A DNA stretch of 61,199 bases from a virus (lineage: Duplodnaviria > Caudoviricetes): the IMG/VR virus record IMGVR_UViG_3300025141_000092, positions 1 through 61,199 of that record; one strand, written 5' to 3'. The translations under genes were made by a program, and so were the position numbers. The notes under the pieces are model-generated. The model was not told where the DNA came from. It did no database searches and saw only the letters and a program-made list of their open reading frames with translations. This document shows positions 2,843 through 56,649 of the stretch, piece after piece; the first letter of the stretch is position 1; every line of letters starts with the position of its first letter.

Positions 2843-4543
2843 TTAGACATAGCTAGGAACAGTAGTACCGTTGAAGGCAGTGTTCTTAGCGAATGGCTCG
2901 TAGAGGAAGTTAGAGGTGGGACCGATGATCCTGATAACACGATAGAAGTTGTTGTATGGTTCAATCGTGACCTTACCGTAGCGGGTAAGGATACCCTTCC
3001 TGGGCTGGAATGATTCGGGATCAACGATGGTGGGCAACTGCTGAAGTGGGATGTATGGAGCGTAAACATACCCAGCATCCATAGCGTTATCACCTTTGTA
3101 GCCCATGAGAATCTCATCAGTGGGGAACATTGGATCAACATAAAGATCGTAGCGACCCATGAACTTACCTTTGAATGCGATAGCACTCTTAGAGATGTTC
3201 GTAGGACCATCATTAGGCAGGATACCTCCCTCAAGCTTAGAAGCACTTTCGAGAAGTGAAGCAACTAAGGGTGAAGTAAGAATCCAGTTACCAGGACCAC
3301 GCATCGTTGTCTTGTAGATGTCTTGCGAAGCAAGGTTGATCACAGCAAGAAGGTTTGCGTACATCTCGCCAACGTGACGGGGGTACAAGGTCGCGCCTTG
3401 GCTTCTGCCGAAATCAATCGTATAAATGTTTGATTTTTGGGCAAATGCACCAAGCTCAGTGTTGGTTCCTGCACCTTCGGCTCCATCAAAGTCGTAGGTG
3501 AACTGCTTAGGAACGAAGAACCCAGCACTATCGGAGTCCTGGATACCAGCGAATGAAGATCCAGCAGTGCTGACTCCACCCATGTTGATGTAGTCGTTAT
3601 CCATTTGACCGATAGCAGCACCACCGTTGAGAGTCTTATGATAACCATAAGCAATCATGCGGAGGTCTTCAATAAGTTCACGGTCAACCTCAAGAGCAAG
3701 TTCCTTCGAAAGAAGGGTAGTAAGCTCTTTTTCAAGATCGAGGTTGTGATAAGCCTTAAGGTCTTGAGAAGCCTCAAGAGTCCAAAGGGCTCTCATCTTA
3801 CGAGTGTTTGCAACGACTGCTTCCTGCTCAATGTGGAAGGTCATCTCTGGAATACCAGTACCAGTTAAACGCTCACCAGCCGAAAGCTGATAACCGTAAA
3901 TAGCACTAGCGTTAGGGAAGGCAGCAATCTGACCACCCATGGTACCAGAAGGGGCACCAACACCAGCTACCTGACTTTCACCACCAAGCGCCGTGTCGTT
4001 AAGACCACTAACGGTATCAAGGACGTTAGAAACGTCGAAGCCATCATCAGCGTTATCACCGTCAAGGCCACCAGTTGTGCCTCGGGCACCGTTGATGCCG
4101 AAGGTGTTAGTACCTGCGACTGTTTGCTGGTCGTGATTTCCTTGAGAACCAATAGCCGAAGCGGTGAGACCTTTGTAAGTAAGGTTGAACTTACTGTACA
4201 CAGTTTCAACAGTGCTACCGTTCTTAACACGGTCGTTACCAAGATAGAAAACTTGGCTTACTGGGCCTTGCATGGGCTGAACACCAACAAGGTTGTTGGC
4301 AATCAGATTAGGGTAGACCCGACGAACAAGAGGGAAAGCGAACTTTTGGAAAGTACCGAGTTGACCAGTTGTGGTTGCTCCTGCGGTAATTGCCTCGTTC
4401 ATTTTCTCCTCTACAATAGACTTTGCTTGGTTCTCAAGAAGTTGTGCTGTAACTCGACGGGTATACTCGTTATCGATACCCTCAAGGACAGGCTCCCACT
4501 TTTGGACCAGCGTTTCATCAGTTTGATGCATTACATCTAGCAT
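2843..4543 (-). CDS. gp23: Major capsid protein (T4 gp23-like)
   Basis: KWEPVL, LLENQ, PLVRR...VGVQPMQGP, RKMRALWTLEASQDLKAYH and YAPYIPL...DPESFQPRKGILTRYG motifs. Confidence 0.97.
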   Translation of the reverse strand: MLDVMHQTDETLVQKWEPVLEGIDNEYTRRVTAQLLENQAKSIVEEKMNEAITAGATTTGQLGTFQKFAFPLVRRVYPNLIANNLVGVQPMQGPVSQVFYLGNDRVKNGSTVETVYSKFNLTYKGLTASAIGSQGNHDQQTVAGTNTFGINGARGTTGGLDGDNADDGFDVSNVLDTVSGLNDTALGGESQVAGVGAPSGTMGGQIAAFPNASAIYGYQLSAGERLTGTGIPEMTFHIEQEAVVANTRKMRALWTLEASQDLKAYHNLDLEKELTTLLSKELALEVDRELIEDLRMIAYGYHKTLNGGAAIGQMDNDYINMGGVSTAGSSFAGIQDSDSAGFFVPKQFTYDFDGAEGAGTNTELGAFAQKSNIYTIDFGRSQGATLYPRHVGEMYANLLAVINLASQDIYKTTMRGPGNWILTSPLVASLLESASKLEGGILPNDGPTNISKSAIAFKGKFMGRYDLYVDPMFPTDEILMGYKGDNAMDAGYVYAPYIPLQQLPTIVDPESFQPRKGILTRYGKVTIEPYNNFYRVIRIIGPTSNFLYEPFAKNTAFNGTTVPSYV

Positions 4544-5283: not shown

Positions 5284-6633
5284 TTACTTATTAGCTCGCT
5301 TCGAGCCGTAGTCAGTAGCCCACTTATGAATCTTCTTGCTTGCTTCGGCTCCTTTTGAGATACCCTCACCTGTCTTCTTAACAAGCCCCTTAACAGCGTC
5401 TCTTGTTGGTCCATGAATCGCTCTAGTAGTATGAGAAGTTCCTCTCTTCAAGGGGCTCGCAGTCTTATCATAAGCTCTCTGCTCTTCACCAGCCATTGTG
5501 GACCGTGCCTTTGCGCTCTTAGATTTTTCTCGTTTTCCGTGAGTCTTAGTTGCCTGCTTTATACCCTCTCGACCCTGTGCTCCTTTGGCTTTAACATCTT
5601 TCAATTCTTCGCCTCGTCTGGCCTTACCTGCAATCTTAGAACCTTCGGCTTCACCTTTAGCTTTTGCGATTGCCATACCCTTGGCTGATTTCTCTGCGTG
5701 TTTACGCTCTGATCTCTGACGTAATGCGCGGGATACGTGACCCTCTTTCTTTTCTTTACGAGTAACAGTTACATTTTTGGTGTCTGTGTCCTCAGAATCC
5801 AAGAAATCTGACGTAGCCTCATCAATCTCGTGACCCATAGCTACTGCAAGAGCTTCCGCAATCCTGTGCCAGTGACCATCAGCCTTAACTAGTTCGAAGT
5901 GGTCTTTCATACTAGTCCGCTTAAAGGCTTCAGTTTCCGCTTGCGCTTCTTGTGCCTCTGCTTTCTTTTTAGCTTCGGCTTTTTCTCTAGCGGCTTTAGT
6001 TTTTTTAGACTCTCTAGACTCTTCAATCCAAGGCTGATAAGCATTCCGCATCTTAGACTCAAGCATAGTAATAAAGTTGCTCTCTTTTTCCAACTTACCT
6101 TGAGTAGTTTTAGCAAACGCCGCTTCTCTAGATTCAGAAAGACCAGGGAAAGCTCCTCTGGTGGAAGGATCAGCAACGAGATCAAAGGTTACAAGGTTAA
6201 AGTCTTCGTTTACAATCTTAGATCCATTTGCATCCTCGGAAAGAGTGCCCATTCCACGAGATGAAATACCTATCTTAACTCCACCATTTACTAATGCCTG
6301 GGCAGTTAAGCCAGCAGGAGTTTTAAGAATTTCAGCTTCTCCGATTACCTCATTACCTTCCATATGGAGTTTGGTAACTAAGTGCGAAGCATTCGAAAGC
6401 TTAACTGTATCATTCTGTGGGTGATCTAACTCCCCACACAACCTACGCTCCTCGATAAGAGGCTGCATCTTCTTGATCTGACCTTCAAGGACTTTAGTAG
6501 GATAAATTCTCCCATTATTATTAGCTTCTTCGGCTCTCTGAAAAGTTCCTCGAATTTTCATCTTACTCTTACCCGAACCCTCTTCAATTATTTGAAGATT
6601 ATCCATAATATAAACGTCTTGTATTAGTTGCAT
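5284..6633 (-). CDS. gp21: Prohead protease (gp21-like) with a long Lys/Arg-rich C-terminal extension
   Basis: NNNGRIYP, GELDHP, GISSRGMG and FDLVADPST motifs. Start moved to MQLIQD (6633), which abuts the upstream stop. Confidence 0.9.
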   Translation of the reverse strand: MQLIQDVYIMDNLQIIEEGSGKSKMKIRGTFQRAEEANNNGRIYPTKVLEGQIKKMQPLIEERRLCGELDHPQNDTVKLSNASHLVTKLHMEGNEVIGEAEILKTPAGLTAQALVNGGVKIGISSRGMGTLSEDANGSKIVNEDFNLVTFDLVADPSTRGAFPGLSESREAAFAKTTQGKLEKESNFITMLESKMRNAYQPWIEESRESKKTKAAREKAEAKKKAEAQEAQAETEAFKRTSMKDHFELVKADGHWHRIAEALAVAMGHEIDEATSDFLDSEDTDTKNVTVTRKEKKEGHVSRALRQRSERKHAEKSAKGMAIAKAKGEAEGSKIAGKARRGEELKDVKAKGAQGREGIKQATKTHGKREKSKSAKARSTMAGEEQRAYDKTASPLKRGTSHTTRAIHGPTRDAVKGLVKKTGEGISKGAEASKKIHKWATDYGSKRANK

Positions 6634-6634
6634 T

Positions 6635-7075
6635 TTACTTTCCTTTTTCTCCTTTGTCAAGGACGCCATCGGCTCCCCCGATACCTTTTGCTTTTTTCAT
6701 GGATCTGCTTCCATGCCTTGCGGCTAATTCTTTTGAGCCTTTGCCGTGTCGTAGTTCAGTTCGGGCTGCATGTTTTTTAATGCTACCCCAATCGGAACTA
6801 GGCGTAGAGCTTCCAGGCGTAAACCCTTTAGCAATTTTACCTCTGCCACTTTTCTTACCCCACTTTCCTTTTGAGATTACATAAGTTCTAGCTGCTCCTT
6901 TTGTCGAAAAGATCTCACCCACTTTACCAGCACTCAAAGCATCGCGTATAGTATTATAAGTTTTTACTCTACCTTTTTGTGATTTCGACTGCTCTTTGCT
7001 TTTTTCTTCCTCTTCGTATACCTCTTCCCCTGATTGGTACTCTTTTAGTCTACGAAGAAGAGCAGCTATTTTCAT
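6635..7075 (-). CDS. Basic hypothetical protein (prohead core/internal protein candidate)
   Basis: Lys/Gly-rich; coupled to neighbours by overlapping or adjacent start/stop codons; occupies the T4 gp67/gp68 position. Confidence 0.65.
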   Translation of the reverse strand: MKIAALLRRLKEYQSGEEVYEEEEKSKEQSKSQKGRVKTYNTIRDALSAGKVGEIFSTKGAARTYVISKGKWGKKSGRGKIAKGFTPGSSTPSSDWGSIKKHAARTELRHGKGSKELAARHGSRSMKKAKGIGGADGVLDKGEKGK

Positions 7076-8025: not shown

Positions 8026-11000
8026 TTACTTAGTTCGTTCCTTTTTAGCCTCATTAGCGTTAGGTTTAGGCACCTGTTCTGTCTTAGTAAAGCCTCCCAT
8101 AGTAGATGACCATGGATCCGAAGTTGTAGGAGGAATGACGTATTGCCCAGTCAGAGTAGCCTTAATAGGGAAATATATGTCGGCAGGAGCCCCCTCTATT
8201 CTACTCTTAATTTTCGTTTTCTTTGTAAAAGATATACCATCATTTCTAGTGGGACTAGCAATCCGAACATTCATTAAAAGACCATCCCGCATTCGAGGCA
8301 TTAAGTATTTTGAATTTTCTAAGAATACAAATTTATTAAACTCAGTCTGTGTCATTCTAGAGAATAAATCAAAGGTTGTAATCTCAGGTACATTCTTTCT
8401 TACTTCGTATAGCTTATAATTGGTTACTAATTCACTTATAATATTATACGCTAAACGTAAAGAAGTCCCTTTTCGAGCAGGCTGTTTTGTAATTTTAGGA
8501 CCTATCTTTCCTGAAGCCTCATAACCCTCTTTAAATAATTTATTAGTGGTGTAGTTAATTTTAACTTCCCGTGCTTGAGAATCATACTTTCCTAAAATAT
8601 TAGTCTTAGTGGGGGCTATATCATAGGTAATAAAATCATGGCTCATCGCTTTTCCTGGCTTGGGATTTAGGGAGGGGGAGTAAGTTAGCTCCCGTGACAC
8701 TACCCCGTCATCTGTGAAGGAAGTAATTGAAGATTTAGTATTCGATAACATAAACTTTTGCCTATTAGTGGGGAAGATAATAATGTAATACGGAATTTGT
8801 CTAGTTAATAAAGGAATATTCTTAGCCTTTTTTGCTCCCTCCACAATAATATCATGCTGCTTCATCACTAACTGCTGAGTAGCGATAATATGATCTAGCA
8901 TTACATCATCGTAACTCATGTAGAAAACTTTATGATTTATTTTATGCTTGACCCAATCATTTATCTCTCTCAAGGAGTCCGTGCTACTAGTTCCTAATAA
9001 ACTATAAACTGCGCTACTTTCAATAACATGCTTAAACGAAGTGTGAGTACTCTCAATAGCACTAGGCACAAGCTTTAAGATGTAAGCATTATTTCTAGGA
9101 TCTTCTCCACTTAAATTCAAGGAGTGGGTGAACTCTACGGCACTAGTTGATTCCGTATGCAGAGTTCTATAAGTATTTCCTCCTAACAGATGAAGAGCTT
9201 GTTCTTTCGCTCCTCTAGGAATAATAAAGGCGTGACCCCTTTCCGAACAAAGCTTAAGCTTCCTTTCAGCCCCCTTAATACGGACGTTAATATAGTCACC
9301 GTCCTGGATTTCAAAATTTCTCCCTGCTACCTTTACTATATCTCCATCATCTATAGGGAAACAATAATCTCCTTTAGTTTCCTCCACTGTTTGAACTTTA
9401 TTTTTACAGTAGATAGGATTCATTATAGTCTGGGGTTTATTAATCTTAATAGGAAGCCCTTTATCCAAATCAGTTGGTAGAGTTTTCCATAACTCCATCA
9501 TATTCCTATCCCTTCCTGCTTCATTTTTAGCAGGATCTAAGGGGATCATCGCGTTCTCAATAAGACCTAAGGCTACTGTCTCATTTAAGATTTTATCATT
9601 GGAGGGAACAATTGTGACTGCTTTTATTTTACTATTCTCTCTTACTAAATTTCTAAAGGCTAACATATCAAATTTGCCAATAGTACCGTCTAAAATTCTA
9701 GCCATAACCATCTTTAACATACTCGAAAGAGGTATAGGAGTTCCTCCCACACTCCTCAACCTACCTAGTCGTTGAAGAAATTGAAGGTTTAAGCTTTTTT
9801 CTAAGATATTAGCGGTTACAGCCTTACCTAAATTAGAATCCCAGTCTTTATAGGTATTATTTACTTTTAATAAATCATAAAGAGGCTCAAAGATTCGTCG
9901 CCTAAAGATCTTAGTATTTCCACTCTGAACTTTAGAAGTTCTACTTACATCAGGAGAGATAAGAGTAATTGCAGTATTTCTATCTGTGCTTGCTGTAGGT
10001 CTTTTTTTAGTTCCATACTGCGCTAAGCTTGCATCATTTAAATCAAGAGTTCTCCTTTTGTGGGTTCCCTTTCTACTAATAAAGTGGTCTTTTAAATTTA
10101 ATTGAGGGTCAACTCCTGGGCGATTACGAATGCCCTCGCCTGCTATTGTAGGTAAATTAGTTGGACCATAAACAATTGTCCCTGAATGAAGTTTTCCTGT
10201 ATCTTCAAGGGTTGCCTCAGGACGATCACCTCTATCTTCGCGCCCACTACAAAGAGGATCCCGCTTACATTGCGCTTCTGATTTATGCATATTACGGTCC
10301 GCCTGAAATTCCCACTCTGGGAGTCCACCAGGGATCTCGTGGCATCTCGGTTCAGTCTCTGTGCTAAGTTGAGGAATTCCACAGTACCAGGCGTCGAACA
10401 GTTCCTCATGCTCCTCTCCTACACCACAGGCTTCCTTACATTCGTCCTCAGAGTCGTGCCTGACCTCCCACTCCCTAAAATCGTATATAGGAAATTCTTT
10501 ACAGCACGGGACCTCCACAGTGTTCGTCTGGCCTGCAATCGGCTCCTCACAGGTAACACATTTCCATTTCATCGGAATATGGTCAGGAGCACCTGGGCCT
10601 CCTGGGCCTCCCGAGTTTGGACCACCATCATCACCACCACCCCCAGGTTGATTAGGGTGAGAAAACCCACCGAATCCAGTAGAACCTGTACATCTAATGG
10701 TAGTAGCACTAGCGTCAGGACAGCAGGGCCTCCAGAAAGTATCTTTACAGCAAGTGGTGATATCGGCCCAGTCGTAGCCGCAACCTCCCTCGGAATCAGT
10801 GTCTACAACCGAGCAATTAGGATCCTGTTCGCATTCTTCAACATCGTCAGTATAATCACTGTCAAAATTCTCATTCGTCCAGCACGTACCCTGTCCTGGG
10901 CACGGCTCGTATTGTGTCCAGCCATCATCTTCTAAATCTTCTTTATCTTCTTCTGACGTTCCTGGAGGCAAGTATTTTCTGTGAATAAACTTACATTCTT

Positions 11001-14000
11001 GTTTCCAGGATTTTGTAGTTACAAGACAATGATTTCCATTATCATCTATATAAGACCCCGTTGCTACTAAAGTAGAGTCTCCTTTAACCTTACATTTACA
11101 TTCAGTGTCTTCAGGACCACCCCCTGGCCCTGGCCCTCCAGGCCCTCCTGGTCGAGGAGGTGCAGGAGCGACATCCCCAACCTTGCATCCCGCTTCGCAA
11201 GCAGCTAAAGCTGCAGCTTGTGTGTTTCCTTTATACTCTCCGCTGTTCCCAGGCGTTTGCACACACTGCCACTCATAGGTGGTTTGACCTCCCCCCACTT
11301 CTCCTAGGCCACCGTCTTCCGATAAAGTGGGTTCACACCTATAAGAATACAACGGAGGGGGATCTGTCGTCGGCGGCGATGGAGGAACCTCGCCCCCTGT
11401 TGTGGGGGGATCTGCATCTAATGTATATCTCCACTTTATACATCTTTCATCACAGCAATGAATTCCTGTGCAACACCCTACCTTCGCAGCAGATTGTGCC
11501 GCACAAGCTCCCCCAGGTGCCTCAACGCTCGTTTGACCCTCCCCCGTATAATTATCCTCCCCATACGGGTTTGTCCACCCGTCAGGACCATCCTCCAGAG
11601 AGCCCATTTCGTCATTCCAGGAGTCGGAATTAACGTCATTATCTGGATCCGAGCTTGGTCCAGTATAAATACATCTCTGCTGCCAACATTTTTCAACTTC
11701 AATTGTTTTAGGAAATCCTGATTCTGAAATAACTTCCCCAAGAATAACTACATCATCAGGGAAAGATACCTCAATGGTTGGTCCTCCTCTAATTCGACAA
11801 TTACAGAACCCCTCATTAGGAGTATTAGCACTTCCACCACCTCCACCACCTCCAGGAGGAGGAGTGTCAGGTTGAGGTCCCTGAATATCGGGAACACAAA
11901 TCGCTCGACATTGGTTCGCAGTGGGGTAAGCTCCTAACGTATTCGGGGGTGCAGGGAAACACGACCAGAGCCCAGCCGCATAAGCGCACGCCCACCAAGG
12001 ATCTACAGAAGGCGGCCCTGGGTCTCCAGTGGTTGGACCAGGGGGCTCTGGCTCGCGTACACATTCTAAATGGCAATCCGCTGCTTTATCATAACTACCA
12101 GGAGGAGGAGGTTGCTCCGTAGGTAATGTTACCTTTTGGCATTCTTCATTAATAGGCAACCCACAAGTCCACCAATCAGTATACCCCGTTAAAGTCCCTC
12201 CTCCCGTAGTGGGAGGCGTAGGAGAAGTTGGAAAAGTTGGTGCAGTTGGTGCAGTACGACTACCAGGTGTGAATACCGCATCAGGCAAACATATTTTCAT
12301 GCAATCTTCGTAGTTTGCACCATCTGCCATTACAGAAGGTATATTTTGATCATAAGCGCAACCTAAGGCTATGTTTTGAGAATTCCTCATACAAACATAA
12401 CCGCCGAAACTGTGTGTTCCTCCTCCTCCCCCTCCTGGAGTAGTGGGACCAGTAGCTACTATGCATTGTCCATCACAAGCAGCTTTGCTTCTCCATACGG
12501 TAGGATCAGTAGGCTCAGCCAACACACTCCACACACACTGAGTTCCAGGAAAGGGACATACGTATCCACCTAATTCCCAAGTCGGTCCCGTTGGCCTAGG
12601 AGAAGTGGGAAAAGTTGGTGTTGTAGGATCTGTAGGTACTGTGAACGGTCCTCCTCCTGGAGTAGTTCTTGGCCTGCCCCCAGGATCCCAATCATTACTA
12701 CATATCTTCTCACAAGCTTTTCGTGATGGTTGACCTGGGTAAGGGCCTCCAGTGTCTGCATATGATTTACGAACACATTCCCTTCGAACTCCTAAATAAG
12801 GTACAGATCCTACCTCCTCACATTTCCATCTCACTACTGAATCAGGGGTAACAGGACCAGTTGGGAGAGGTCGAGTACCAGGGGGAGTGGGAGGGGTGGG
12901 AGGGAGCGTAGGAGGGCGAGGGCTTATTGGCCCAGGGTCAAGATCACTATCACACTGAGCCTCACATTCACTCTTCTTCTCGTGCCCAGGAAGATTAAAA
13001 CCATCAACATACCACCTACGAATACATCTGCGCTGAACTCCTAAGTAAGCTACAGTTCCAATCGCCTCACACACCCAACGAGAAACGGTCACTTTCCCTG
13101 GAGTATCGGGTCCAGGCAGGGTAGGCTTGCCTGGGCCAGGAGTTGTGGGAACTGTCCTCGGTCTTGTAGGATCGGGATCGGGATCTTCTCCACCTGTAGT
13201 GGGAACTGTCTTCGGCTTTGTGGGCATCGGAGGCGAAGGGGGGGTGGGGCTTGTAGGTACCGTCCCTATTCCTGGATCATCAGGTCCAAAGCAATCTTGT
13301 TCACATAATTCTCTTGAAGGATAGCCTTGATTAGGATCACCCAAATAAGATTCACAGCGCCGATTTACGCCTCCTAAAGGTGTTCGTCCTCCAGTGACGG
13401 GTCCTCCCTGCACACATCGCCAGCGTTCCGAAAAATTACCTCCTCCTGGGTCTGTATCAGGTCTTCCTTTGTCGCCTCGCGGACCACAGTTTGTTTGACA
13501 CACACCTAATTCAGCCCAAGATGTAACGCCATCAGCCTCCAAGTTACTTACAAAATAACAGTTCCAATAAGGATCCATTCGACATTTATAAGCTCCTGGA
13601 CCTTGTGTAGTAGGTCTTCTTACCCCAGGAGTAGGAGTGGTAGGAGGAGGTTTGCAAGCTTCTTCGCACTCTCTCGGAGTTGCCCAAATCTCAGGTTCAT
13701 TAGGGTCTCCATCAGGAGAATGAAAACAATACCAGTAAGGTGCCCTCCTGCACTTATACCCTCCGTCGCCTCCACCCGTGGTAGGGCCTGGAACTTTAGT
13801 GGCTGGTCTTGTGCCAGGGCCAGTAGGTGTTGTACGAGGAGGTCGAGAAGGTCTCGTAGGCCCATCATTTCTACACAACCTCCTGCACTTCTCTGGGGTA
13901 TCATGCCCGTCATCTCCGTGAGCAAGTTTGCGTACACAGTGTCTTGTGGGGGTTACCTCAGCCCCTCCTACTCCTCCCGTTGTTATAGGTCCAGTATGCA

Positions 14001-15531
14001 CATCTTCGCAATACCACTTATATAGACTCTCCTCCGTGCCTGGGCCTCCTCTCGGGCGTGTAGGATCTCCGTCATCTCTGCATTCTTTCTGGCACTCCTC
14101 TACACTTCTATATCGTTTTTGTCCTGGACCAGCAGGAAGGTTTGTATAAACACAATCCCTCGTAGTGCCTGCTGTGGGCTCCATTCCTCCTGCCGTTGTA
14201 GGTCCTGATTCCTCACAAACATATGCCCCACTTTCAGGAACAATAGGCCCACCAGTCTCACAACTCTTTTTACATTCAGCTTGAGAATTATACTTACGAT
14301 CATTAGGGCCAAAAGCAGATTCAGGTAAGAGAATACACTCCCGTAGTTGATTCGCAGCAGGGGCAGGCCCTCCCCCTCCCGTAATGGGACCTCCAGACTC
14401 ATTTTCTACACATTTCCAATACGAATTAGGTGATACAGGTTTAGGTCGCCCAACATCTCTATAGCAAACACGCTCACATGCCTGCCTAGAGGGATATCGT
14501 ACCTCATTAGGGCCAAAAAAGGTACTGTATATACATCCCATCACCCCTTGGGAGTCTACACATCGCCAACCATCGGTAGGTCCAGGAGTTGTAGGTGGAC
14601 GCCGACCTCCATCCTGGTCCATATAGCAAACACGCTCACATGCCTGCTTAGAGGGGTACTGTATCCCAGCAGGGTTTGTAGTGTACATACATCCCATCAC
14701 CCCTTGGGTGTTTACACATCGCCAACCATCAGTAAGTCCAGGAGTTGTAGGTGGACGCCTAGTCCCTCTAAAGCAAACAGCCTCACATGCCTGCCTAGAG
14801 GGATATCGTACCTCATTAGGGCCAAAAAAAGTACTATATATACATCCCATATGCCCTTGGGTGTCTACACATCGCCAACCATCGGTAGGTCCAGGAGTGG
14901 TGGGGAATGTTCGAGGTCTTGTGGGAGGGGTTCCGCTGGGGTCTATTCCACCGTCTGGTACAGTGGGTCTGTCCCGTGGAATACAAACATGAATAGGAGG
15001 ACAGCACGGCTCATCATCTGGATTCCGAGTGTCCTCACAACATGCTGGAGCAATTCCTGTACATGCTCCTCCTGCCTTTCCGCTAACCCCTCCTCCACTA
15101 TTAGCTGCATCCGCTGCCGCTTGTTCAAAACCCCCAGAATGATCAGGTGCGCCCTGCTCAGGAAAACATTTCTGTTCAAAAGTGAGACAAGTCTGACCTA
15201 CATCTCCCCCAGGAGGTTCAGGGATTCCTCCTCCTCCTCCCGTAGTGGGGCCTCCACCACCGCTACTTCCACCTTGACCGTCCCCCCCTGTTGGTGTTCC
15301 GTCTCCGACTACTCTACAAACACACCCAGGAAGCTTATCTCCAGGTCTTGTCTCTGGCGTAGTAGGTGGGGAAGGAAGGGTAGGTCTTTCTCCATCAATA
15401 CCATCGGGATCAACAACAGTAGGAAGCGTAGGCTCCTCAGGACCGCAATCAGGGCAACCCCTGTTGATGGATCCAGGCCCGTGCCCTCCTGCGAATTCAC
15501 CGCATTGAAAACTAATAACCTCTTGGGGCAT
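8026..15531 (-). CDS. Giant Cys/Pro/Gly/Thr-rich repeat protein (2501 aa), probable virion fibre/adhesin
   Basis: About 18 [WY]xC...C...CxxxC modules in PT-rich linkers plus a ~700-aa non-repetitive C-terminal domain; last gene of the baseplate/fibre run. Confidence 0.8.
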   Translation of the reverse strand: MPQEVISFQCGEFAGGHGPGSINRGCPDCGPEEPTLPTVVDPDGIDGERPTLPSPPTTPETRPGDKLPGCVCRVVGDGTPTGGDGQGGSSGGGGPTTGGGGGIPEPPGGDVGQTCLTFEQKCFPEQGAPDHSGGFEQAAADAANSGGGVSGKAGGACTGIAPACCEDTRNPDDEPCCPPIHVCIPRDRPTVPDGGIDPSGTPPTRPRTFPTTPGPTDGWRCVDTQGHMGCIYSTFFGPNEVRYPSRQACEAVCFRGTRRPPTTPGLTDGWRCVNTQGVMGCMYTTNPAGIQYPSKQACERVCYMDQDGGRRPPTTPGPTDGWRCVDSQGVMGCIYSTFFGPNEVRYPSRQACERVCYRDVGRPKPVSPNSYWKCVENESGGPITGGGGPAPAANQLRECILLPESAFGPNDRKYNSQAECKKSCETGGPIVPESGAYVCEESGPTTAGGMEPTAGTTRDCVYTNLPAGPGQKRYRSVEECQKECRDDGDPTRPRGGPGTEESLYKWYCEDVHTGPITTGGVGGAEVTPTRHCVRKLAHGDDGHDTPEKCRRLCRNDGPTRPSRPPRTTPTGPGTRPATKVPGPTTGGGDGGYKCRRAPYWYCFHSPDGDPNEPEIWATPRECEEACKPPPTTPTPGVRRPTTQGPGAYKCRMDPYWNCYFVSNLEADGVTSWAELGVCQTNCGPRGDKGRPDTDPGGGNFSERWRCVQGGPVTGGRTPLGGVNRRCESYLGDPNQGYPSRELCEQDCFGPDDPGIGTVPTSPTPPSPPMPTKPKTVPTTGGEDPDPDPTRPRTVPTTPGPGKPTLPGPDTPGKVTVSRWVCEAIGTVAYLGVQRRCIRRWYVDGFNLPGHEKKSECEAQCDSDLDPGPISPRPPTLPPTPPTPPGTRPLPTGPVTPDSVVRWKCEEVGSVPYLGVRRECVRKSYADTGGPYPGQPSRKACEKICSNDWDPGGRPRTTPGGGPFTVPTDPTTPTFPTSPRPTGPTWELGGYVCPFPGTQCVWSVLAEPTDPTVWRSKAACDGQCIVATGPTTPGGGGGGTHSFGGYVCMRNSQNIALGCAYDQNIPSVMADGANYEDCMKICLPDAVFTPGSRTAPTAPTFPTSPTPPTTGGGTLTGYTDWWTCGLPINEECQKVTLPTEQPPPPGSYDKAADCHLECVREPEPPGPTTGDPGPPSVDPWWACAYAAGLWSCFPAPPNTLGAYPTANQCRAICVPDIQGPQPDTPPPGGGGGGGSANTPNEGFCNCRIRGGPTIEVSFPDDVVILGEVISESGFPKTIEVEKCWQQRCIYTGPSSDPDNDVNSDSWNDEMGSLEDGPDGWTNPYGEDNYTGEGQTSVEAPGGACAAQSAAKVGCCTGIHCCDERCIKWRYTLDADPPTTGGEVPPSPPTTDPPPLYSYRCEPTLSEDGGLGEVGGGQTTYEWQCVQTPGNSGEYKGNTQAAALAACEAGCKVGDVAPAPPRPGGPGGPGPGGGPEDTECKCKVKGDSTLVATGSYIDDNGNHCLVTTKSWKQECKFIHRKYLPPGTSEEDKEDLEDDGWTQYEPCPGQGTCWTNENFDSDYTDDVEECEQDPNCSVVDTDSEGGCGYDWADITTCCKDTFWRPCCPDASATTIRCTGSTGFGGFSHPNQPGGGGDDGGPNSGGPGGPGAPDHIPMKWKCVTCEEPIAGQTNTVEVPCCKEFPIYDFREWEVRHDSEDECKEACGVGEEHEELFDAWYCGIPQLSTETEPRCHEIPGGLPEWEFQADRNMHKSEAQCKRDPLCSGREDRGDRPEATLEDTGKLHSGTIVYGPTNLPTIAGEGIRNRPGVDPQLNLKDHFISRKGTHKRRTLDLNDASLAQYGTKKRPTASTDRNTAITLISPDVSRTSKVQSGNTKIFRRRIFEPLYDLLKVNNTYKDWDSNLGKAVTANILEKSLNLQFLQRLGRLRSVGGTPIPLSSMLKMVMARILDGTIGKFDMLAFRNLVRENSKIKAVTIVPSNDKILNETVALGLIENAMIPLDPAKNEAGRDRNMMELWKTLPTDLDKGLPIKINKPQTIMNPIYCKNKVQTVEETKGDYCFPIDDGDIVKVAGRNFEIQDGDYINVRIKGAERKLKLCSERGHAFIIPRGAKEQALHLLGGNTYRTLHTESTSAVEFTHSLNLSGEDPRNNAYILKLVPSAIESTHTSFKHVIESSAVYSLLGTSSTDSLREINDWVKHKINHKVFYMSYDDVMLDHIIATQQLVMKQHDIIVEGAKKAKNIPLLTRQIPYYIIIFPTNRQKFMLSNTKSSITSFTDDGVVSRELTYSPSLNPKPGKAMSHDFITYDIAPTKTNILGKYDSQAREVKINYTTNKLFKEGYEASGKIGPKITKQPARKGTSLRLAYNIISELVTNYKLYEVRKNVPEITTFDLFSRMTQTEFNKFVFLENSKYLMPRMRDGLLMNVRIASPTRNDGISFTKKTKIKSRIEGAPADIYFPIKATLTGQYVIPPTTSDPWSSTMGGFTKTEQVPKPNANEAKKERTK
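14461..14905. repeat. Three near-identical ~135-145 bp intragenic tandem repeats
   Basis: Copies at about 14461-14603, 14623-14759 and 14771-14905 share AGCAAACA...CTCACATGCCTGC...CACATCGCCAACCATC...GTCCAGGAGT. Confidence 0.9.
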
Positions 15532-15537
15532 TTAAAT

Positions 15538-18054
15538 TTAGGTTTGCGGCTTGAGAGTGATGGTGGGGTTGGTAGTATTTAAGTTTCCGTATAGATACTG
15601 AGAGTCTGAGGTAGGAATTCCTATCATTTTCCAAGTAACTGTGGGGTATGTACATTTACCTACCCTAGGGTTGCCAGTGTACCCTAAGCCATTTAATTCA
15701 CTAATAGGAGTAGTATTAGATTTCAATAAATCCTCAACAGGAACAATAAAGCTACTAAACCTGCCTCCACCTCGCTCAGATACCGATAAAGTTTGAGTCG
15801 TTTTCTTTTTCTTACCTGTTGTGGTGAAGGATAAGGAGTGAGGTGAGGGGAACCGAGGAACGTTAGGTCCTTGATAAACATCATTTGCGGCAAATGCAAC
15901 ATATACAACAAACTCATCATACCCCTTTTCTACCCAAATACCTGCGTACTGAGAAGGCATAGGATTGTTATCATCTCTAGAGAATCCTCTTTGTGTCTGA
16001 GGAAGACAATTAGCTAATTCAACATCAATCATGTAATCGGCTAACCATGCAGCAGCTTCCCGATTAAATCTAACACGTTTAGAAATGTAATGGAAGTTAA
16101 CTCTACTATACGCCTCACCTGTCTCTGAGTTATCAAAACTCGATAATCTACTGGGAGGGTTAATAGAATCAGGACCTGTCCCGTTCGCATTAGTAATCTG
16201 ACTATAGCTTCCTGCAACAATAGATCCATCACCTGCACCCGCATCTTCAGTAGTGCCTAGGAAAGTATTAATATAATCGTTAGGATATAATCCTTTATCG
16301 CTAAGATCTTGTAACTGGCACCACTGCGCTTGATCCCAATCAGGATAAGCGGGAATACTAATTTGCGCTCCGTTACTTCCTATTCCATATTTACTAGTGA
16401 TATACTGTCGAATATACTGTAAGCTATCGTTGGATGTAACATCATCCCCCGCAAACTGTGATTGATAGAAATCATAAAGCGCTCCTTCAGGGCCAAAGTT
16501 CCATCCTCCAAAGATGTATCCTGCCGCAACAACACTTACATTATCTGGCTGGTTTTCTTCGTCCGCAATAAACCCATTCACATGATTCACTACCTTCCTC
16601 AGTTCCATATCCAACTGTGCTTTACCTACTGCTGGGTTAGCAATAGACAACTGAGGCATGGCTGCTGCGATACCTGCTCGTTCATTGTAAGTAAGCTCTG
16701 CAGTGCGGAAGAAAGGTCGAATATCTACAACATCCTGTGCTCCAATAATTTGGGCTCCCTCTAAATCGCGTCCACCTGCTCTTTGAACAAAGACATAAGC
16801 AACAGGAAGGATGGACTGTCCGATTAGCTCTATCGCATTTGCTTCTAAGTTTTCTGCGATAAGAGGTGCTAAGTTAAGGAGATCGTCAGGAGATGGGAAG
16901 GACCCTCGAACATCCTGCCCAAGCTCATTCCCAGACGTAGCTAAGAAGCCTAGGTTTGCAGCATTATTATCAGCCGCATGAGCCATAATCATTGAGTTAC
17001 CAAACTCGTCTATCGCTGACTGTGGAGTATATGTTGATGCTAGATCTGTTAATCCTTGGTAAGAAGGTCCAATACCTGCACCTCGAACTACTCCAAGAAC
17101 GGGGGTAGTAATGTCCTGCACAGCCCCGCCTCGTAAAATCTTTGCGCTTTCAGCATCAATAGGCTTAGTATATAAGAAAATTAAATCAATCCGACTCTCA
17201 ACCCCAGGAATTATTTGTCTAGCTCCCTGCTCGTCAATGTAATAAAAATCGTTATCACTAAATGCTGGGATTTCAACAGATAGTTCATTAGGAACGTCAA
17301 CTACTGCGAGCCTGCTAACCCCTCTCCATTTTTTAACGAACGTAGTTTCAGCTAAAGGAAGCTTTCCGAACCCAGTAATTTCGTTGGTAGTAGAATAACT
17401 AGGAATTAAAAAACTATCAACAGTGTTGCCATAACTCTTAGCCCAAAGAAGAGCTTGTGTAATTACAAAAGGACCAAAGCCTCCTGCTCCCGTAGTACCT
17501 GTATATGCTTTCCTATCCCCTGTTGTTCCTGCTGCGTCCGTTGCAGAATCACTACTCCGAACAGCCCAAGTAAAAGCTCTTTCAGCCAAACCATTCATGT
17601 TAAGCGCATCTGCTGCAAGGGTCGATTGGAAACGAGCAAGAGCCGTAATTAATAAGTTGTTATAGGAAGTTCCAAAGGTCCCAGGGTTATTGGTAGCTGC
17701 ACTCCACGCATCTACATCCCCTACCGCAGTCCCCATTACCTGTTGTAAGTATTGAAGAGGTTGTTTAGTAGTTGCATCATTTACTCTAGCCGTAAATCTT
17801 CCAGGCTTCACCCTAACAAGGCGATCTCCTCCTGTCGAATAAGGTTTTAACTCTGCAATATCTTGTCTTTTAATATCTTGAACAGCGTTTTCTGTTAGAG
17901 ATTGTTGTAACTGATCTCTAAGCCATAAGCAGTTTTCCTGTAGCTGCTTAATGGGGATGTTATCCACCTCGAAATAATAAGGATCATTTTGTTTAAATAA
18001 TCTAATAGGTTCCGTGAACCGAAATGAGCTTTCTGTATATCTAATTTGTGCCAT
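15538..18054 (-). CDS. Putative baseplate/tail-fibre protein
   Basis: 838 aa in the tail block; N-terminal DNIPIKQLQE motif shared with the adjacent spike protein. Confidence 0.6.
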   Translation of the reverse strand: MAQIRYTESSFRFTEPIRLFKQNDPYYFEVDNIPIKQLQENCLWLRDQLQQSLTENAVQDIKRQDIAELKPYSTGGDRLVRVKPGRFTARVNDATTKQPLQYLQQVMGTAVGDVDAWSAATNNPGTFGTSYNNLLITALARFQSTLAADALNMNGLAERAFTWAVRSSDSATDAAGTTGDRKAYTGTTGAGGFGPFVITQALLWAKSYGNTVDSFLIPSYSTTNEITGFGKLPLAETTFVKKWRGVSRLAVVDVPNELSVEIPAFSDNDFYYIDEQGARQIIPGVESRIDLIFLYTKPIDAESAKILRGGAVQDITTPVLGVVRGAGIGPSYQGLTDLASTYTPQSAIDEFGNSMIMAHAADNNAANLGFLATSGNELGQDVRGSFPSPDDLLNLAPLIAENLEANAIELIGQSILPVAYVFVQRAGGRDLEGAQIIGAQDVVDIRPFFRTAELTYNERAGIAAAMPQLSIANPAVGKAQLDMELRKVVNHVNGFIADEENQPDNVSVVAAGYIFGGWNFGPEGALYDFYQSQFAGDDVTSNDSLQYIRQYITSKYGIGSNGAQISIPAYPDWDQAQWCQLQDLSDKGLYPNDYINTFLGTTEDAGAGDGSIVAGSYSQITNANGTGPDSINPPSRLSSFDNSETGEAYSRVNFHYISKRVRFNREAAAWLADYMIDVELANCLPQTQRGFSRDDNNPMPSQYAGIWVEKGYDEFVVYVAFAANDVYQGPNVPRFPSPHSLSFTTTGKKKKTTQTLSVSERGGGRFSSFIVPVEDLLKSNTTPISELNGLGYTGNPRVGKCTYPTVTWKMIGIPTSDSQYLYGNLNTTNPTITLKPQT

Positions 18055-21000
18055 TAATCCATCCTCTTAAGATCAAAAATGTTTGCTGATCTAAATCCTT
18101 TAATTGCAGAGCCATCATAAGCTTCAGCCCCAAGTTCTGTATTGTCTCCCGACCTATAAATCGTAGCTCTTTTAGGTCTTCCCGAGCCTCCTAAAGCGGC
18201 ATTTTTAGCATTCGCAAACGTATTAGCTGCAGACTCATCTAACATACATTGAGTTGGGTTATCATCTAAGAACTCTTTACAGTAATAAAATCCCGACATC
18301 GCAAGCCCCGTAGGGACAGCACCTAAAGGCGTAGCATCCCAATCACTAATTTTTAATAAATTCGGATATAGAGAGCTAAGAGAAGTACTTCCTACAGGGA
18401 CAATTGCTGACACTGGCGCAGACATATTGTAGCCCTGAGCAAACACTTGGTTTGCAGCCCCCGTCATCCAAGTTACGGGAACACCGTCGTGAGGGAAGGC
18501 TCCTTTATTGTAACCAAAAGTAGCATCATGTGCTAAGAATTTAGTGCATGAATTAGGTGAGAAGTAAATCCTAAAGACTCCTTGATTAAGGAAACTAGAT
18601 CCTGATGCTCCATACACAGTCTTTGGATTGAGAGTAAGGTTTCCTGCTGTTGCTAATCCTGCGCCACCTAAAAGTTTTTCAGTCTCATCATTTATATGTC
18701 CACTGACGGGGAAATATCGACCAAAAGGATCATTTACTCCCACTCCGCTAGGAACTAACCATAAACCAGACACAGAACCTCGACCAAAGGTGTCTAAAAC
18801 ACTCAATCTTCCTGTGTCTGGAGTCCCTGATGGAGCCCCAGAAGCAGGAACAGGAAGAAGCCCAGGGGATGTATAATCATCAGGGGCGAGGGCCGAGGTC
18901 CAGACCGCACTAGGGCCATGATAACCTACATCTGAAGGGTAACATCCACTTACAGAAGTAAAGGCTACCTTTAGTTCTGAATTATCAGCAATATTCCAAA
19001 TCATTAATCGGCTACAAGTGTCTCCGCTCGCATTGTAGTATGCCCCGTCCAGAGGACTATTAGCAGTTCCTATAGGGAAGTGAACGTTCGTAACATTTAC
19101 CTTGCTGCCATCCACTGCTCTAATACATACGCCACCCTGGGTAACATCTTCCAACTCTTCAGTGGACATTACCGCACCAGCTAAGAAATCTGTAGTAATA
19201 AGGTATTGATTGTTTCGTGTTTTTTCGGTAAACGTGGGGAACGGCATCCAACTGAATGCTCTCGCCGCATTTCCTGTTAAATCGTCTAAATAGTTGCTCG
19301 TAATTCCTGTTCGTATTTGAGGGTTAGGATAGAATTGAATGGAGCCATTCTTAATAAGACCACTTATATCAAGATTGTCATTAGTCTTATAATCTTGTGT
19401 CATAGTCATAAGCATTGTACGCCCATGAGAATATTCTCCCCAGAAATTGTGGTAATCCCCACAATCATTCATGTTAATAACAGAGTTGTGATTAGCAACC
19501 AAGCAGGCCCTAGTAGAATGAAGCTCTACGGAAGTGTGATTACCTGGAGCACTTAAATCGAATCCACTACCGTCTAATGCGTAAGTATCCCTAACGCGAG
19601 GTGGCCCAATATCGAGTACAGAATTATTTTCTACTAATGCATCCACTCCAAATTGAGCGATACAAGTGGGACCGTGCAAGCCTAGCTTTGAATTATTTTC
19701 TGCCGCAATACCTGCAACATACTGCTGCTTTTGGTACGCCGCAGGCCCAACTAAAACAGTAGCTCCATTTTTTGTGCCAAAGAATTCAGCTTCGGAGGAA
19801 TCTTTAGAGCGTAACAACATTCCAGGAGACACAGTTTTTAGAGCTACTTCTGCTGCGTCTCGGTACATTGTAGAGTGAATAAAGTTTGCATAAGAGTTGC
19901 TTTCTAGCGAAATCGCAGGAAGAATTCCAAACCCTATCCCCGTAGCATTGTTAACAACTCCATGGGCTCCACTAAAAATCATATGCCCATACTTTTCTGG
20001 AAGATGATTTTTTCTTTTTAATTCAAAGCTGGAGTTATTTCGCAGAACAATGTGCTGTCCATTCGCTCGGAAATCATACTGTTTTCTAGTAGCTTGGCCT
20101 GTGGTTATTCCAGGGCTTACGGAGTTTCCGTTAATAACAAATGTATTGTAAAGAATTTTTGAATTATCACAAACAAACCCTTCACTAGTATGATCTTCTA
20201 CGCAAATCTGCTCAACCTGTAGCTCTGTATTGTTAAGTTGAGAGCCTTTTTTGTTTCCGTAGATATCAAAAAGACCCTTGATATTTAACGAAGAGTTTTT
20301 AGCTATTAGACCATAGCCTGTATTAAGCTCCGTATTAATCATCCCCCCAGTGTATGGAAGAGCAGCAGCAGATCTAGCCAACCCGCCCTCCATTCGGCTA
20401 TTATGTAGATCAAATCCTACATAGTTTCTAGACATAGAAAACACAGTATCATACCCTGACGCAGGAAGGTCTAGTCCTGGGTTGTGTGCGTATGGTGGAC
20501 GTAGCTCAGTATTAGTAGCGTGAGTACCTGAGACCACAGCACTTAAAGTAATATGGCTATTAAACGCTTGTAAGCCTGCACCTTTTTCAGTAACTCTAGT
20601 GTTAGTCGTATCTCGGGAATAATTTCTATAAGAAAATGCAGATCTAGATAAAGTTACATTAGAATTTTGCAAGTAGAAGCCTGCATTGTTACATCTTACG
20701 GCTGTGCAATTCTCTAGTACAACATCCGAATCGCTGACCTCAATTCCATTATCTCGGCCTCCTCCTCCAATCGCTGATTCTCCGTCTACAAAGAAATTTC
20801 TAATATAGATAGGACCTACGCAATTTCGTATACTTAACTTATAAAGAGAATTACCATAAATATTTCCTCCTGCCTTCGTTGTATCTACAACAGGGACGCT
20901 TCGTAATAATCGCGCACCTGTAAACTGATTGACCGCACTAACATCATTGATAGCTAATTGGGTGTCTGTGTCTGATTGCTCGTATGTTTGAATCCCAAAT

Positions 21001-30003: not shown

Positions 30004-30464
30004 TGTACAGTTATCTCCTCACTAAAAATAGTGCCGTCTTCAGTTAGTTTAAGAACTAATAAAATAAAAATTGAAGCAGTTCCGAAATTTCCAACATTCG
30101 ATCCTTTAAGGACTCTAATTTTCTGAACAGTCGCTCCTTGTAAATAATTATAACAAGAGAATAAAACTTCCTCTTTAATCTGCTGAAACGTTATTGCATC
30201 AAGTGGTTGAAATAAAAACTTTTTCAAATTACACCCAAATTTAGGAAGCATTAACCTCTCCCCCCGCTCTGTTTTTAGCAATTGATGAAGCGCGTCTTTT
30301 ACCTTCGTTACTCCTGTATTTGCAGCACAAAAACCCGACTTGGTTTTGAGTCTTCCCGTAGGAAATGCAATCCCCCTTCCTCCTCTTAACTTATCAGAAA
30401 TATACTCTTTAGTTAGTGGAGAGTAAGGTGTTCCATAATAATTTACTGTTGTGTTTGCTCCCAT
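30000..30464 (-). CDS. gp25: Baseplate wedge/sheath initiator gp25-like
   Basis: LLKTERGERLMLPKFGCNLKKFLFQP motif. Confidence 0.9.
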   Translation of the reverse strand: MGANTTVNYYGTPYSPLTKEYISDKLRGGRGIAFPTGRLKTKSGFCAANTGVTKVKDALHQLLKTERGERLMLPKFGCNLKKFLFQPLDAITFQQIKEEVLFSCYNYLQGATVQKIRVLKGSNVGNFGTASIFILLVLKLTEDGTIFSEEITVQ

Positions 30465-44427: not shown

Positions 44428-44596
44428 CGTTTTGTCTCTCTATATCTTCTTTTAAAAGCTTTATGAAGGAACTTCTCTCCAATCTAGTCATGCTCTTAAC
44501 GTCACTGTAGGAGAAAAAACCTTTGTTCACAAGTATATAGGCTTCTTGTAGAAGAGACTCTACATCAATAACTCCCTCTAATTCGCGTCGAAAAAA
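44411..44596 (-). CDS. gp51-like frame, probably reached by -1 frameshift from gp26 (not in ORF track)
   Basis: The -1 frame reads FFRRELEGVIDVESLLQEAYILVNKGFFSYSDVKSMTRLERSSFIKLLKEDIERQNDAIKR* and has no well-placed start codon. Confidence 0.65.
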   Translation of the reverse strand, partial: FFRRELEGVIDVESLLQEAYILVNKGFFSYSDVKSMTRLERSSFIKLLKEDIERQNDAIKR

Positions 44597-53786: not shown

Positions 53787-53818
53787 AAAATTTACTGTCT
53801 TACTATTATAATTATAGT

Positions 53819-55405: not shown

Positions 55406-56083
55406 TTAAGGTTTAAGAGGTCTAGTTGGCCTTGGCGTCCCAGGGGGCCTCGTTGGAGGTGGCTTTCTTAGCGGTCGCGTAGGTACGGTAATCCTATCCC
55501 CAACTCCTCCTCTAGGGGTAGTTGGAAGAGGGGTTGGAATTCTATCTTCTTGTACAGGCTTCGCTGATCTAGTGGGAATTATTGGTCTACGTTCAATTAT
55601 TCTAGTAGAAGGCTCCTGACATACACGAACACAATCAGCTAAAGTATTATAAATCCCATTAGGGTCTTTTGTACATACTAAGTCCCGTACATTGCAGGCC
55701 CATTTCTGTATAGAACCATGGCCTTGGGGAGTGGTTGGGGGAGCAAACGCAGGAAAATCATTAGACCCCATATCTTCGGGGACAGGCCGAGGGGTGGTCC
55801 CCGTTGGTTGCGGACTCCCGCACCTCGCGTTGCAGGCCCTAAGATCCTTATACGTCGCACCATCCGCCACTTTTACACATTCATAGTAAGTTAGATCAAC
55901 TCCCGACTGCCTGCAAATATACCCAGGGGTGCGCGGTGGAGGCGGCGGAGGCTCAATACAAACCCTCTCACAACCTTCTTTAGTGTTATGAACGCCACCC
56001 ACTCCGTCCGCAGGCACACAGGCCCAGGTGCTCTCATCGCACCACCAACCGTGATTCCCAGGCCACTCAGCACTATGACTCAT
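55406..56083 (-). CDS. Free-standing protein with three four-Cys modules and a Pro/Thr/Arg tail
   Basis: WWC...C...CERVC, YIC...C...CNARC and WAC...C...CVRVC; same module as in 8026-15531. Confidence 0.75.
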   Translation of the reverse strand: MSHSAEWPGNHGWWCDESTWACVPADGVGGVHNTKEGCERVCIEPPPPPPRTPGYICRQSGVDLTYYECVKVADGATYKDLRACNARCGSPQPTGTTPRPVPEDMGSNDFPAFAPPTTPQGHGSIQKWACNVRDLVCTKDPNGIYNTLADCVRVCQEPSTRIIERRPIIPTRSAKPVQEDRIPTPLPTTPRGGVGDRITVPTRPLRKPPPTRPPGTPRPTRPLKP

Positions 56084-56649
56084 CCTGTCCTTGGAGGGAT
56101 TGTAGGCCTGGGAGAGTCCCTCCTCTCATAGTCAGATTGACAGTTTTCTTGACATTCAGCTAAAGTACTGTATACTCCACTAGGAGGTATAGCGCCATAG
56201 TTCACGAACACTTTTTTACATGTTCGGAACTTGCCGATGAATCCTCCTGTCACAGGGGACTCCTTACAGACCCAATATTCCCTAGCTGCGCCACCTGTGA
56301 TAGGAGATGTTGGTGGAAGACAAAAGCTCTCGCATGCATCTTTAGTGTCATATTGACTTTCGTTAGGTCCAAAGAGTTCTGCTGGTTGTGCTATGCATCC
56401 CCATACACCCTGCGTATTTACACAACGCCACTTATCTCCCCTCCTTGGCAATCTGATTTGGTTTTCACAAAACGTCTGGCATTCACTCAAAGTCGCATGA
56501 CCGTCAAATCGAGACCCGTACTTCCCAACACAACGTCTCTCCAGAACGTTTGACTGCGCGTTGAAGCCCCAGTCCACGCAGTGATACCTAAACGCGCCAC
56601 CTAAGCCTTGCCCCCCTGGCCCTTGAGGAAATTGAGGAAATTGAGCCAT
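56080..56649 (-). CDS. Free-standing protein with three four-Cys modules
   Basis: WRCVNTQGVWGC...FGPNESQYDTKDACESFC is close to modules 1-3 of the giant protein. Confidence 0.75.
   Translation of the reverse strand: MAQFPQFPQGPGGQGLGGAFRYHCVDWGFNAQSNVLERRCVGKYGSRFDGHATLSECQTFCENQIRLPRRGDKWRCVNTQGVWGCIAQPAELFGPNESQYDTKDACESFCLPPTSPITGGAAREYWVCKESPVTGGFIGKFRTCKKVFVNYGAIPPSGVYSTLAECQENCQSDYERRDSPRPTIPPRTG

Follow-up and report, generated by a model that had tools for sequence, protein, structure and literature searches.

Hoc of phage T4, which binds the capsid surface, combines tandem small immunoglobulin (Ig) domains with one anchoring domain and is thought to be exposed on the particle. Phage tail fibres are trimers attached to the baseplate by their N-terminus, with a receptor-binding domain at the distal end. 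Kunitz domains carry six cysteines bridged in the pattern 1-6, 2-4 and 3-5, and their N-terminal segment holds the P1 protease-binding loop together with Cys5 and Cys14. Structural disulfides are described for the Pam3 myophage, whose fibres are disulfide-bonded to the baseplate wedge via an N-terminal Cys and are freed by dithiothreitol (PMC9942802). The window considered here, a 61,199-base IMG/VR virus record (IMGVR_UViG_3300025141_000092) with a completeness estimate of 55%, includes on its minus strand a giant gene (8026..15531) made of one open reading frame (ORF) that encodes a protein of 2,501 amino acids (aa) and 269 kDa. This gene belongs to a core family of structural genes, strictly syntenic, in a lineage of uncultured marine T4-like myoviruses, and its product carries 18 four-cysteine modules, called A modules, with a predicted fold like the core of a Kunitz domain. 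The giant protein is read as a long, disulfide-hardened, flexible fibre or tether of the virion surface, with a probability of roughly 0.5.

The four-cysteine array

The middle of the giant protein, about 1,700 aa long, is composed of 18 A modules of about 35-55 aa and three B domains of about 120 aa, joined by Pro/Thr/Gly linkers. Sixteen strict A modules are retrieved by the regular expression C-x(5-30)-C-x(8-30)-C-x3-C, and two variants complete the set, one with six Cys (aa 1658-1702) and the other ending in Cx5C (aa 1717-1761). A Trp or Tyr residue stands two positions ahead of the first Cys in all 18 modules, and the CxxxC is preceded by [YHWF]-x-[ST] in 12 of them. The [WY]xC-anchored pattern is observed 16 times; when aa 218-1763 are shuffled 2,000 times, it appears 0.07 times on average and never more than twice. 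Once the 18 modules are aligned with six others from small ORFs of the same window, no column other than those of the four Cys is invariant over the 24 sequences. Their spacing is C-x(6-24)-C-x(15-21)-C-x3-C, and the long variable loops between the first two Cys (C1-C2 loops) are rich in Gly, Thr and Pro, like the linkers, which along modules 1-15 measure 8-67 aa and are rich in Pro, Thr, Gly and Arg. An array of 18 four-cysteine modules on Pro/Thr linkers, with a constant Cys frame and variable loops, had been proposed by an earlier sequence-only reading for positions 10250-14880 (aa 218-1761 of the giant protein), and both claims are borne out by these counts.

The gene starts with a conserved N-terminal peptide (aa 1-30; 15442..15531, minus strand as for all features of the gene), recognized by invariant alignment columns and in family members, that includes an invariant Cys within the motif F-x-C-[GN]-x-[FLY]-x-P-G. 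It is followed by B-type Cys domain 1 (aa 66-190; 14962..15336), with the pattern CxC...C...CC...CC...C also found in distant family members, and by A modules 1-15 (aa 217-1214; 11890..14883), of the form [WY]xC-loop-C-x(16-21)-CxxxC and delimited by motif, alignment and fold. Then come B-type domain 2 (aa 1239-1370; 11422..11817), A module 16 (aa 1395-1451; 11179..11349), supported by motif and alignment, and B-type domain 3 (aa 1474-1620; 10672..11112), the second and third B-type domains being assigned from their Cys pattern. The array is closed by A modules 17, with six Cys, and 18, ending in Cx5C, both placed by alignment (aa 1654-1763; 10243..10572). The conserved C-terminal region (aa 1825-2501; 8029..10059), with an isoelectric point (pI) of 9.7 here, is predicted to be alpha/beta and to fold confidently from about aa 1860, without a recognizable fold. 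The three larger B-type domains, the N-terminal peptide and two small module ORFs described below had been missed at first, whereas the basic, non-repetitive end noticed at that stage is confirmed, as the last 738 aa have a pI of 9.6 and hold three Cys; aa 1-1763 have a pI of 4.7.

The giant protein contains 114 Cys: aa 1-1761 account for 111, and the remaining three are residues 2042, 2057 and 2095. Cysteine makes up 4.6% of its residues, a share that does not exceed 2.6% in the 39 other ORFs listed, three small Cys-rich ones at 55.4-58.3 kb (5.1-6.4%) excepted. The G+C content reaches 0.51 at 10.2-15.5 kb versus 0.42 for the window, in keeping with the Gly/Pro/Thr-rich array encoded there. 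Modules 1-3 form a tandem triplication of about 153 nucleotides (nt) at 14444..14904, in which the reference copy shares 89% and 61% identity with the two others; it was revealed by a repeat search, though Tandem Repeats Finder reported no tandem repeat. At E up to 0.1, the giant protein as a whole matches no Pfam family, be it Ig, fn3 or Big, and neither Pfam nor PHROG points to a fibre family. It also lacks a signal peptide.

The motif P-x-T-[GTA]-G occurs nine times in aa 1-1763 against 0.9 expected from shuffles. It is located in linkers and long C1-C2 loops, recurs in orthologues, and may be a modification sequon. A glycosyltransferase-like gene is present at 53819-54511 on the plus strand of the window.

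A Kunitz-like core outside the Kunitz family

The AlphaFold2 model of module 1, built from the alignment of the 24 paralogous modules, has a mean predicted local distance difference test (pLDDT) score of 91.2, with strands at residues 2-8 and 11-17 and a helix at 30-37. From these residue numbers, the two Cys of the hairpin would be cross-strand neighbours and the CxxxC pair would lie on one face of the helix. A VIA structural scan of 48,161 PDB chains with this model returned 27 entries with Z of at least 2, including 23 Kunitz/BPTI chains with Z of 2.2-4.6 and a root-mean-square deviation (rmsd) of 1.7-2.8 Å over 33-37 residues. In most entries, residues 1-39 of the module are aligned with residues 19-57 in BPTI-type numbering, or with the matching part, and the last two Cys of the module coincide with Kunitz Cys51 and Cys55 in an ungapped register. 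Low absolute Z values are expected for 39 residues, so that the telling part is the nearly exclusive return of one fold. The best Foldseek entries are also Kunitz chains, at a non-significant level (E about 5, TM 0.53-0.56). Searched against all PDB chains, the sequence profile of the module gives four weak matches (E 0.14-1.2), three of them to the C-terminal part of Kunitz chains, and the tail G-x-N-x-[YF]-x-[ST]-x3-C-x3-C underlies the weak top Kunitz matches.

Like a Kunitz domain, the module is predicted to consist of a beta-hairpin followed by a C-terminal helix bearing a CxxxC. It differs by its four Cys (six in module 17 only), by hairpin Cys at other positions, by a C1-C2 loop of 6-24 residues, and by the lack of any counterpart of residues 1-18 or of the inhibitory loop. 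With PF00014, a threshold of E up to 10 gives no match for any of the 24 modules, and one of E up to 0.1 gives none for the giant protein. Owing to its four Cys, the absence of the first 18 residues and the absence of a PF00014 match, the A module is not a member of the Kunitz family, but it is predicted to fold like a Kunitz core. The same features bear on the idea that the array is made of Kunitz-like inhibitors blocking host or environmental serine proteases. Such a function would suit the fold and the weak profile matches of the C-terminal motif to Kunitz chains, but it is highly improbable for a module that matches only residues 19-57 of BPTI, is devoid of the P1 loop segment and of its Cys5 and Cys14, and has no match to the family model.

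The module is absent from Pfam, NCBIfam and PHROGs, an Atlas search with modules 1-9 gave no usable match, and full-text literature searches found no description of this module or of the protein family. The initial remark that the scaffold was unrecognized while recalling a Kunitz C-terminal helix is therefore upheld on both counts, by this absence from the libraries and by the 23 Kunitz chains among the 27 VIA entries together with the weak profile matches. A hidden Markov model (HMM) of the module, proposed as a check, has now been built and searched; it retrieves 59 representative proteins.

A hypervariable family with conserved ends

Three orthologues of 2,137-2,312 aa have the whole architecture in common, with modules in the same order. 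Their identity to the giant protein is 40-41% for P0003 and P0004 and 36% over the best segment for P0005. Across these three orthologues, 93 of the 100 aligned Cys of aa 1-1763 are invariant versus 285 of the 1,283 other aligned residues. Module 1 is present in three copies here and in one copy in the orthologues.

More distant relatives are recognized by their C-terminal domain, which is 29-35% identical in 10 further proteins and 41 IMG/VR loci. A single-protein scan of IMG/VR found nothing, whereas alignment-based scans did. In all 37 loci that include the gene start, F-x-C-[GN]-x-[FLY]-x-P-G lies among the first 30 residues, and their proteins measure 812-2,137 aa (three run off the 3' end) versus 2,501 aa here. 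In the family, an N-terminal peptide of about 25 aa, which includes the invariant Cys, and a C-terminal domain of about 650 aa are both conserved and flank a hypervariable middle. The middle ranges from Gly/Pro-rich runs to B-type Cys domains, some members showing a few A modules by eye; the module HMM at E <0.001 picked up only the close orthologue among the family loci. The pI of the C-terminal domain spans 4.6 to 9.6 among 37 relatives, and a basic charge is thus not a family feature.

The C-terminal domain was modelled with AlphaFold2 from 14 sequences, with moderate scores (pLDDT 66.9, predicted TM-score 0.66). The best Foldseek matches of this model have E values of 0.12 in PDB and 0.08 in BFVD, and the best VIA entry (Z 3.9) covers a helical piece of about 55 residues only. 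At the sequence level, PDB profiles give nothing below E 0.1, PHROGs nothing below E 0.05, and Pfam no match. Viral capsid clusters proposed by ESM Atlas (scores 0.88-0.90, low recognition) were counted as no result. A tblastn search of 50,697 GenBank phage records returned no match to this domain, and there is no cultured relative.

The gene is real and kept open. It is nearly unchanged in independent marine metagenome runs, 13 of the 24 listed runs holding at least half of the sampled words; no RNA dataset carrying the gene is found among these 24. In run X3, one contig spans 8026-14502 with six differences and no gaps. Contigs of runs X7 and X12 show substitutions and frame-keeping insertions or deletions (3 nt, 1+2 nt, 1+2+3 nt and 3 nt), as well as one single-base deletion compensated by a one-base insertion three bases further on. 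In the X7 contig, 171 nt are replaced in frame by 162 nt at 10317-10489, in module 17. Independent contigs break at 14502-14869, which corresponds to the triplicated region of modules 1-3, so that the copy number of module 1 is unreadable from those assemblies. L002, a 6,031-base IMG/VR contig, matches the gene over its initial 275 nt alone (99% identity) before an unrelated sequence that closes the frame, and is probably a chimeric assembly.

A T4-like structural gene block

The giant gene had been assigned to a virion-structural module, and its neighbours support this placement. The minus strand of the window bears a T4-type morphogenesis set identified by PHROG matches (E 1e-10 to 1e-85), comprising the terminase (52242-53852), the portal (50485-52257), baseplate hub and wedge proteins (44578-45321, 33245-34387, 30000-30464 and 28393-30003), the prohead protease (5284-6669) and the major head protein (2843-4543). 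A gp23-like head protein, a gp21-like protease, a gp20-like portal, gp6- and gp25-like wedge proteins and a terminase are all encoded near the giant gene, and a T4_baseplate Pfam match occurs among the window proteins. The major head protein and portal are about 30-35% identical at best to cyanophage and other T4-like proteins in the 50,697 GenBank phage records.

Two large unannotated genes, encoding 1,220 and 838 aa, precede the giant gene, which lies downstream of the wedge genes and is followed by three small ORFs and the prohead protease. The 838-aa gene is located directly upstream of the family gene in 37 of the 41 loci, the other four beginning inside the family gene. A 123-aa gene comes next downstream in 33, the other eight ending at the family gene, and beyond it, where the locus is long enough, stand protease, scaffold and head protein genes. 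Across loci, the major capsid protein (MCP) is 62-84% identical versus 29-47% for the best segment of the family protein, which ranks the latter among the fastest-evolving core genes of the block. The 1,220-aa and 838-aa genes (15538-21716, minus strand) are conserved in every related locus reaching them, with identities of 43-74% and 37-80%, respectively. Their products have no sequence relative in PDB and no Pfam or PHROG match, and are likely baseplate or fibre components of the lineage.

Small phage proteins and exported bacterial proteins with the module

Two small ORFs on the minus strand of the window encode three A modules each, without a signal peptide. The first one (189 aa; 56080..56649) has P0006 as a homologue, and the second one (225 aa; 55406..56083), which ends with a Pro/Arg/Thr-rich tail, is related to P0008, P0016 and P0044. 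The sister phage G001, whose record also provides locus L003, has a small ORF with two A modules at 73548-73781 (156-aa frame), which indicates that small module-only proteins are conserved in the sub-lineage. Directly upstream of the two module ORFs, a 315-aa ORF (57330-58277, minus strand) contains 16 Cys (5.1%) arranged as CC, CCC, CxC and, once, CxxxC, and is without match in Pfam, NCBIfam and PHROGs.

These module-only proteins, which have no obvious virion anchor and one of which is also present in the sister phage, raise the question of whether the giant protein belongs to the particle at all. It might be released at lysis as they could be and act outside the cell, for example as a matrix binder or a decoy. 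This explanation is nevertheless improbable, because the position in the structural operon is strictly conserved (41 of 41 loci) and the conserved terminal domains are of the assembly-contact kind.

Beyond phages, a module profile searched against 1.84 billion representative proteins retrieved 59 proteins at E <=0.001, eight of them at <=1e-10. Among them are an orthologue of the giant protein and proteins related to the two small ORFs, as well as arrays in which shorter modules, nearly identical to one another, follow in tandem. [quoted passage not shown] Classical signal peptides of the Sec type stand at the start of seven of the module proteins inspected, and one module cluster is annotated as Candidatus Paceibacterota. 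None of the module regions falls under a Pfam or NCBIfam model, and PDB sequence searches with two of the bacterial module proteins found no relative of the module.

The T9SS protein P0030 has seven related loci in named genomes of Flavobacteriales and Bacteroidales. The module motif is found by regular expression in one of these seven stretches, from a Flavobacteriales metagenome-assembled genome (MAG), and the module HMM at E up to 0.01 matches none of them. Another protein, P0017, combines a signal peptide, five modules and a last stretch of 60 residues corresponding to the HslU C-terminus (E 2e-15); it is probably a misassembled or misjoined gene call, and its match to HslU, due to the fused C-terminal piece only, was set aside.

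Disulfides or zinc

The modules would carry disulfides rather than zinc, by analogy with the same module in signal-peptide-bearing T9SS cargo of Bacteroidota. The high Cys content had been considered odd for a virion, an objection weakened by the disulfide-bonded fibres of Pam3 (PMC9942802). Searches of the window and four related records, one of them 95% complete, yielded no gene for thioredoxin, DsbA, glutaredoxin or Erv1/ALR; the Erv1 search is uninformative, its control having been silent in every control genome. The oxidation would therefore be spontaneous after lysis or dependent on the host. This route is the weakest link of the disulfide reading, and it keeps a zinc-site reading alive.

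In the latter, the modules would form Cys4 zinc sites in a protein kept in a reducing compartment, as an internal head protein, an ejected protein or a cytoplasmic assembly factor. The lack of a signal peptide, the cytoplasmic assembly of the particle and the missing oxidoreductases in the five related records (with the same silent Erv1 control) are compatible with it, as are the convergence of the four Cys in the predicted fold and the place of the gene, with small ORFs and the prohead protease immediately downstream. On the other hand, the CxxC (or CxxxxC) knuckles of zinc ribbons and Cys4 zinc fingers are not present in the modules, which instead would combine a cross-strand pair with a CxxxC in a helix. 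Cys4 zinc sites are not expected in exported proteins, and homologous modules are found in Sec- and T9SS-exported ones. Pro/Thr linkers and an acidic Gly/Pro-rich array, as found here, are typical of extracellular stalks, and an extended chain of about 1,700 aa is hard to square with an internal protein. Zinc binding in a reducing compartment appears decidedly unlikely on this balance.

Proposed role of the giant protein

If the giant protein is a disulfide-hardened fibre or tether, two disulfides in each A module would bridge the two hairpin Cys to the helix face that bears the CxxxC, and these bonds would form once the particle leaves the reducing cytoplasm. The oxidized modules would then make a stiffened, protease-resistant string of beads holding one conserved end far from the end fixed to the virion. 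The beads would serve mainly as spacers, perhaps with a weak multivalent stickiness. By analogy with Pam3, the N-terminal peptide with its invariant Cys may be the anchor, and the C-terminal domain of variable charge may be the host-facing head.

The sequence-only reading had seen in these beads a library of binding domains. The beads-on-a-string organization of Cys-stabilized domains is retained, with a confident predicted fold (pLDDT 91), but the binding-domain part is not supported, given that the long variable loops are linker-like and fit spacers at least as well. An adhesin library of this kind would have each module binding a ligand, for a Hoc-like multivalent adherence to glycans, marine particles or gels, with the C-terminal domain fixed to the capsid. 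It draws on the strong variation of the loops between modules and orthologues, the proximity of head genes, the recent triplication of module 1, the natural variants of module 17, and the occurrence of the module beside carbohydrate-active or adhesin-type domains in bacterial surface or secreted proteins. However, the long loops are Gly/Thr/Pro-rich like linkers, the orthologous modules keep their order and loop class in a way that evokes a conserved stalk more than a shuffled library, and the bacterial modules are near-identical tandem copies standing like spacers between functional domains. An adhesin library is therefore possible but rather unlikely.

Several points weigh against the fibre or tether itself. 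Its placement in the virion is deduced from gene context, the 50,697 GenBank phage records yielding no cultured relative, and since both ends of the protein are conserved, either may be the anchor. The C-terminal domain, devoid of fold or family match, provides no tie to fibres, baseplates or capsids. The similarity to Kunitz domains is modest (Z <=4.6; Foldseek E about 5). With neither a signal peptide nor an oxidoreductase found, the correct formation of more than 50 disulfides calls for an explanation, and the four thiols of a module converge in the model, making a Cys4 metal site geometrically possible.

A bolder proposal makes the A module a minimal four-Cys hairpin-helix relative of the Kunitz core that stands on its own in prokaryotes and phages, its family extending over T9SS cargo of Bacteroidota, bacteria of candidate phyla and marine phages, and that serves the phage as an oxidation-triggered building block. 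The chain would stay reduced in the cytoplasm and acquire more than 50 disulfides after lysis, yielding a tentacle of at least 100 nm that widens the capture radius of the phage. This scenario is speculative and unlikely as a whole.

The module represents a small domain family, presumably of the disulfide type, with a confident predicted fold, outside Pfam, NCBIfam and PHROGs, and common to structural proteins of marine phages and exported surface proteins of bacteria. The resemblance to Kunitz domains could reflect either homology or convergence; if it is ancestry, a BPTI-like core would be placed in bacteria and phages. The giant gene is also identified as a core hypervariable structural gene in a recurrent marine T4-like lineage without cultured member, and hypervariable structural genes are often the site of host-range determinants. 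It raises the question of how dozens of disulfides could be installed in a particle assembled in the cytoplasm without a recognized oxidoreductase of its own.

Comparison with known systems

The module is also carried by T9SS cargo proteins of Bacteroidota and DUF11 surface proteins of Paceibacterota, in which the same module, as judged by profile, is arranged in tandem and often joined by Pro-rich linkers. In these bacteria the copies are shorter, with a C1-C2 gap of 4-8 residues, hardly differ within a protein and are exported by signal peptides, whereas the phage copies are diverse, with long loops and without export signals.

With Hoc and the Ig arrays of phages, the giant protein shares tandem small domains accompanied by one conserved domain. 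It differs by the fold of its domains, by their stabilization by Cys, and by their number, since 18 modules with long Pro/Thr linkers stand in place of three or four contiguous Ig domains, and its conserved domain is about 650 aa long without known fold. The tail fibre gp24 of Pam3 belongs to a contractile-tailed phage with structural virion disulfides, as proposed for the giant protein; its disulfides are intersubunit anchors and not intradomain knots, and its fibre, a short trimer, bears a TNF-like head (PMC9942802). Virion proteins made of tandem domains are already known, whereas the libraries and literature searched contain nothing that corresponds to the module, its Kunitz-core-like fold, the scale of the array (18 + 3 domains in 269 kDa) or the gene family.

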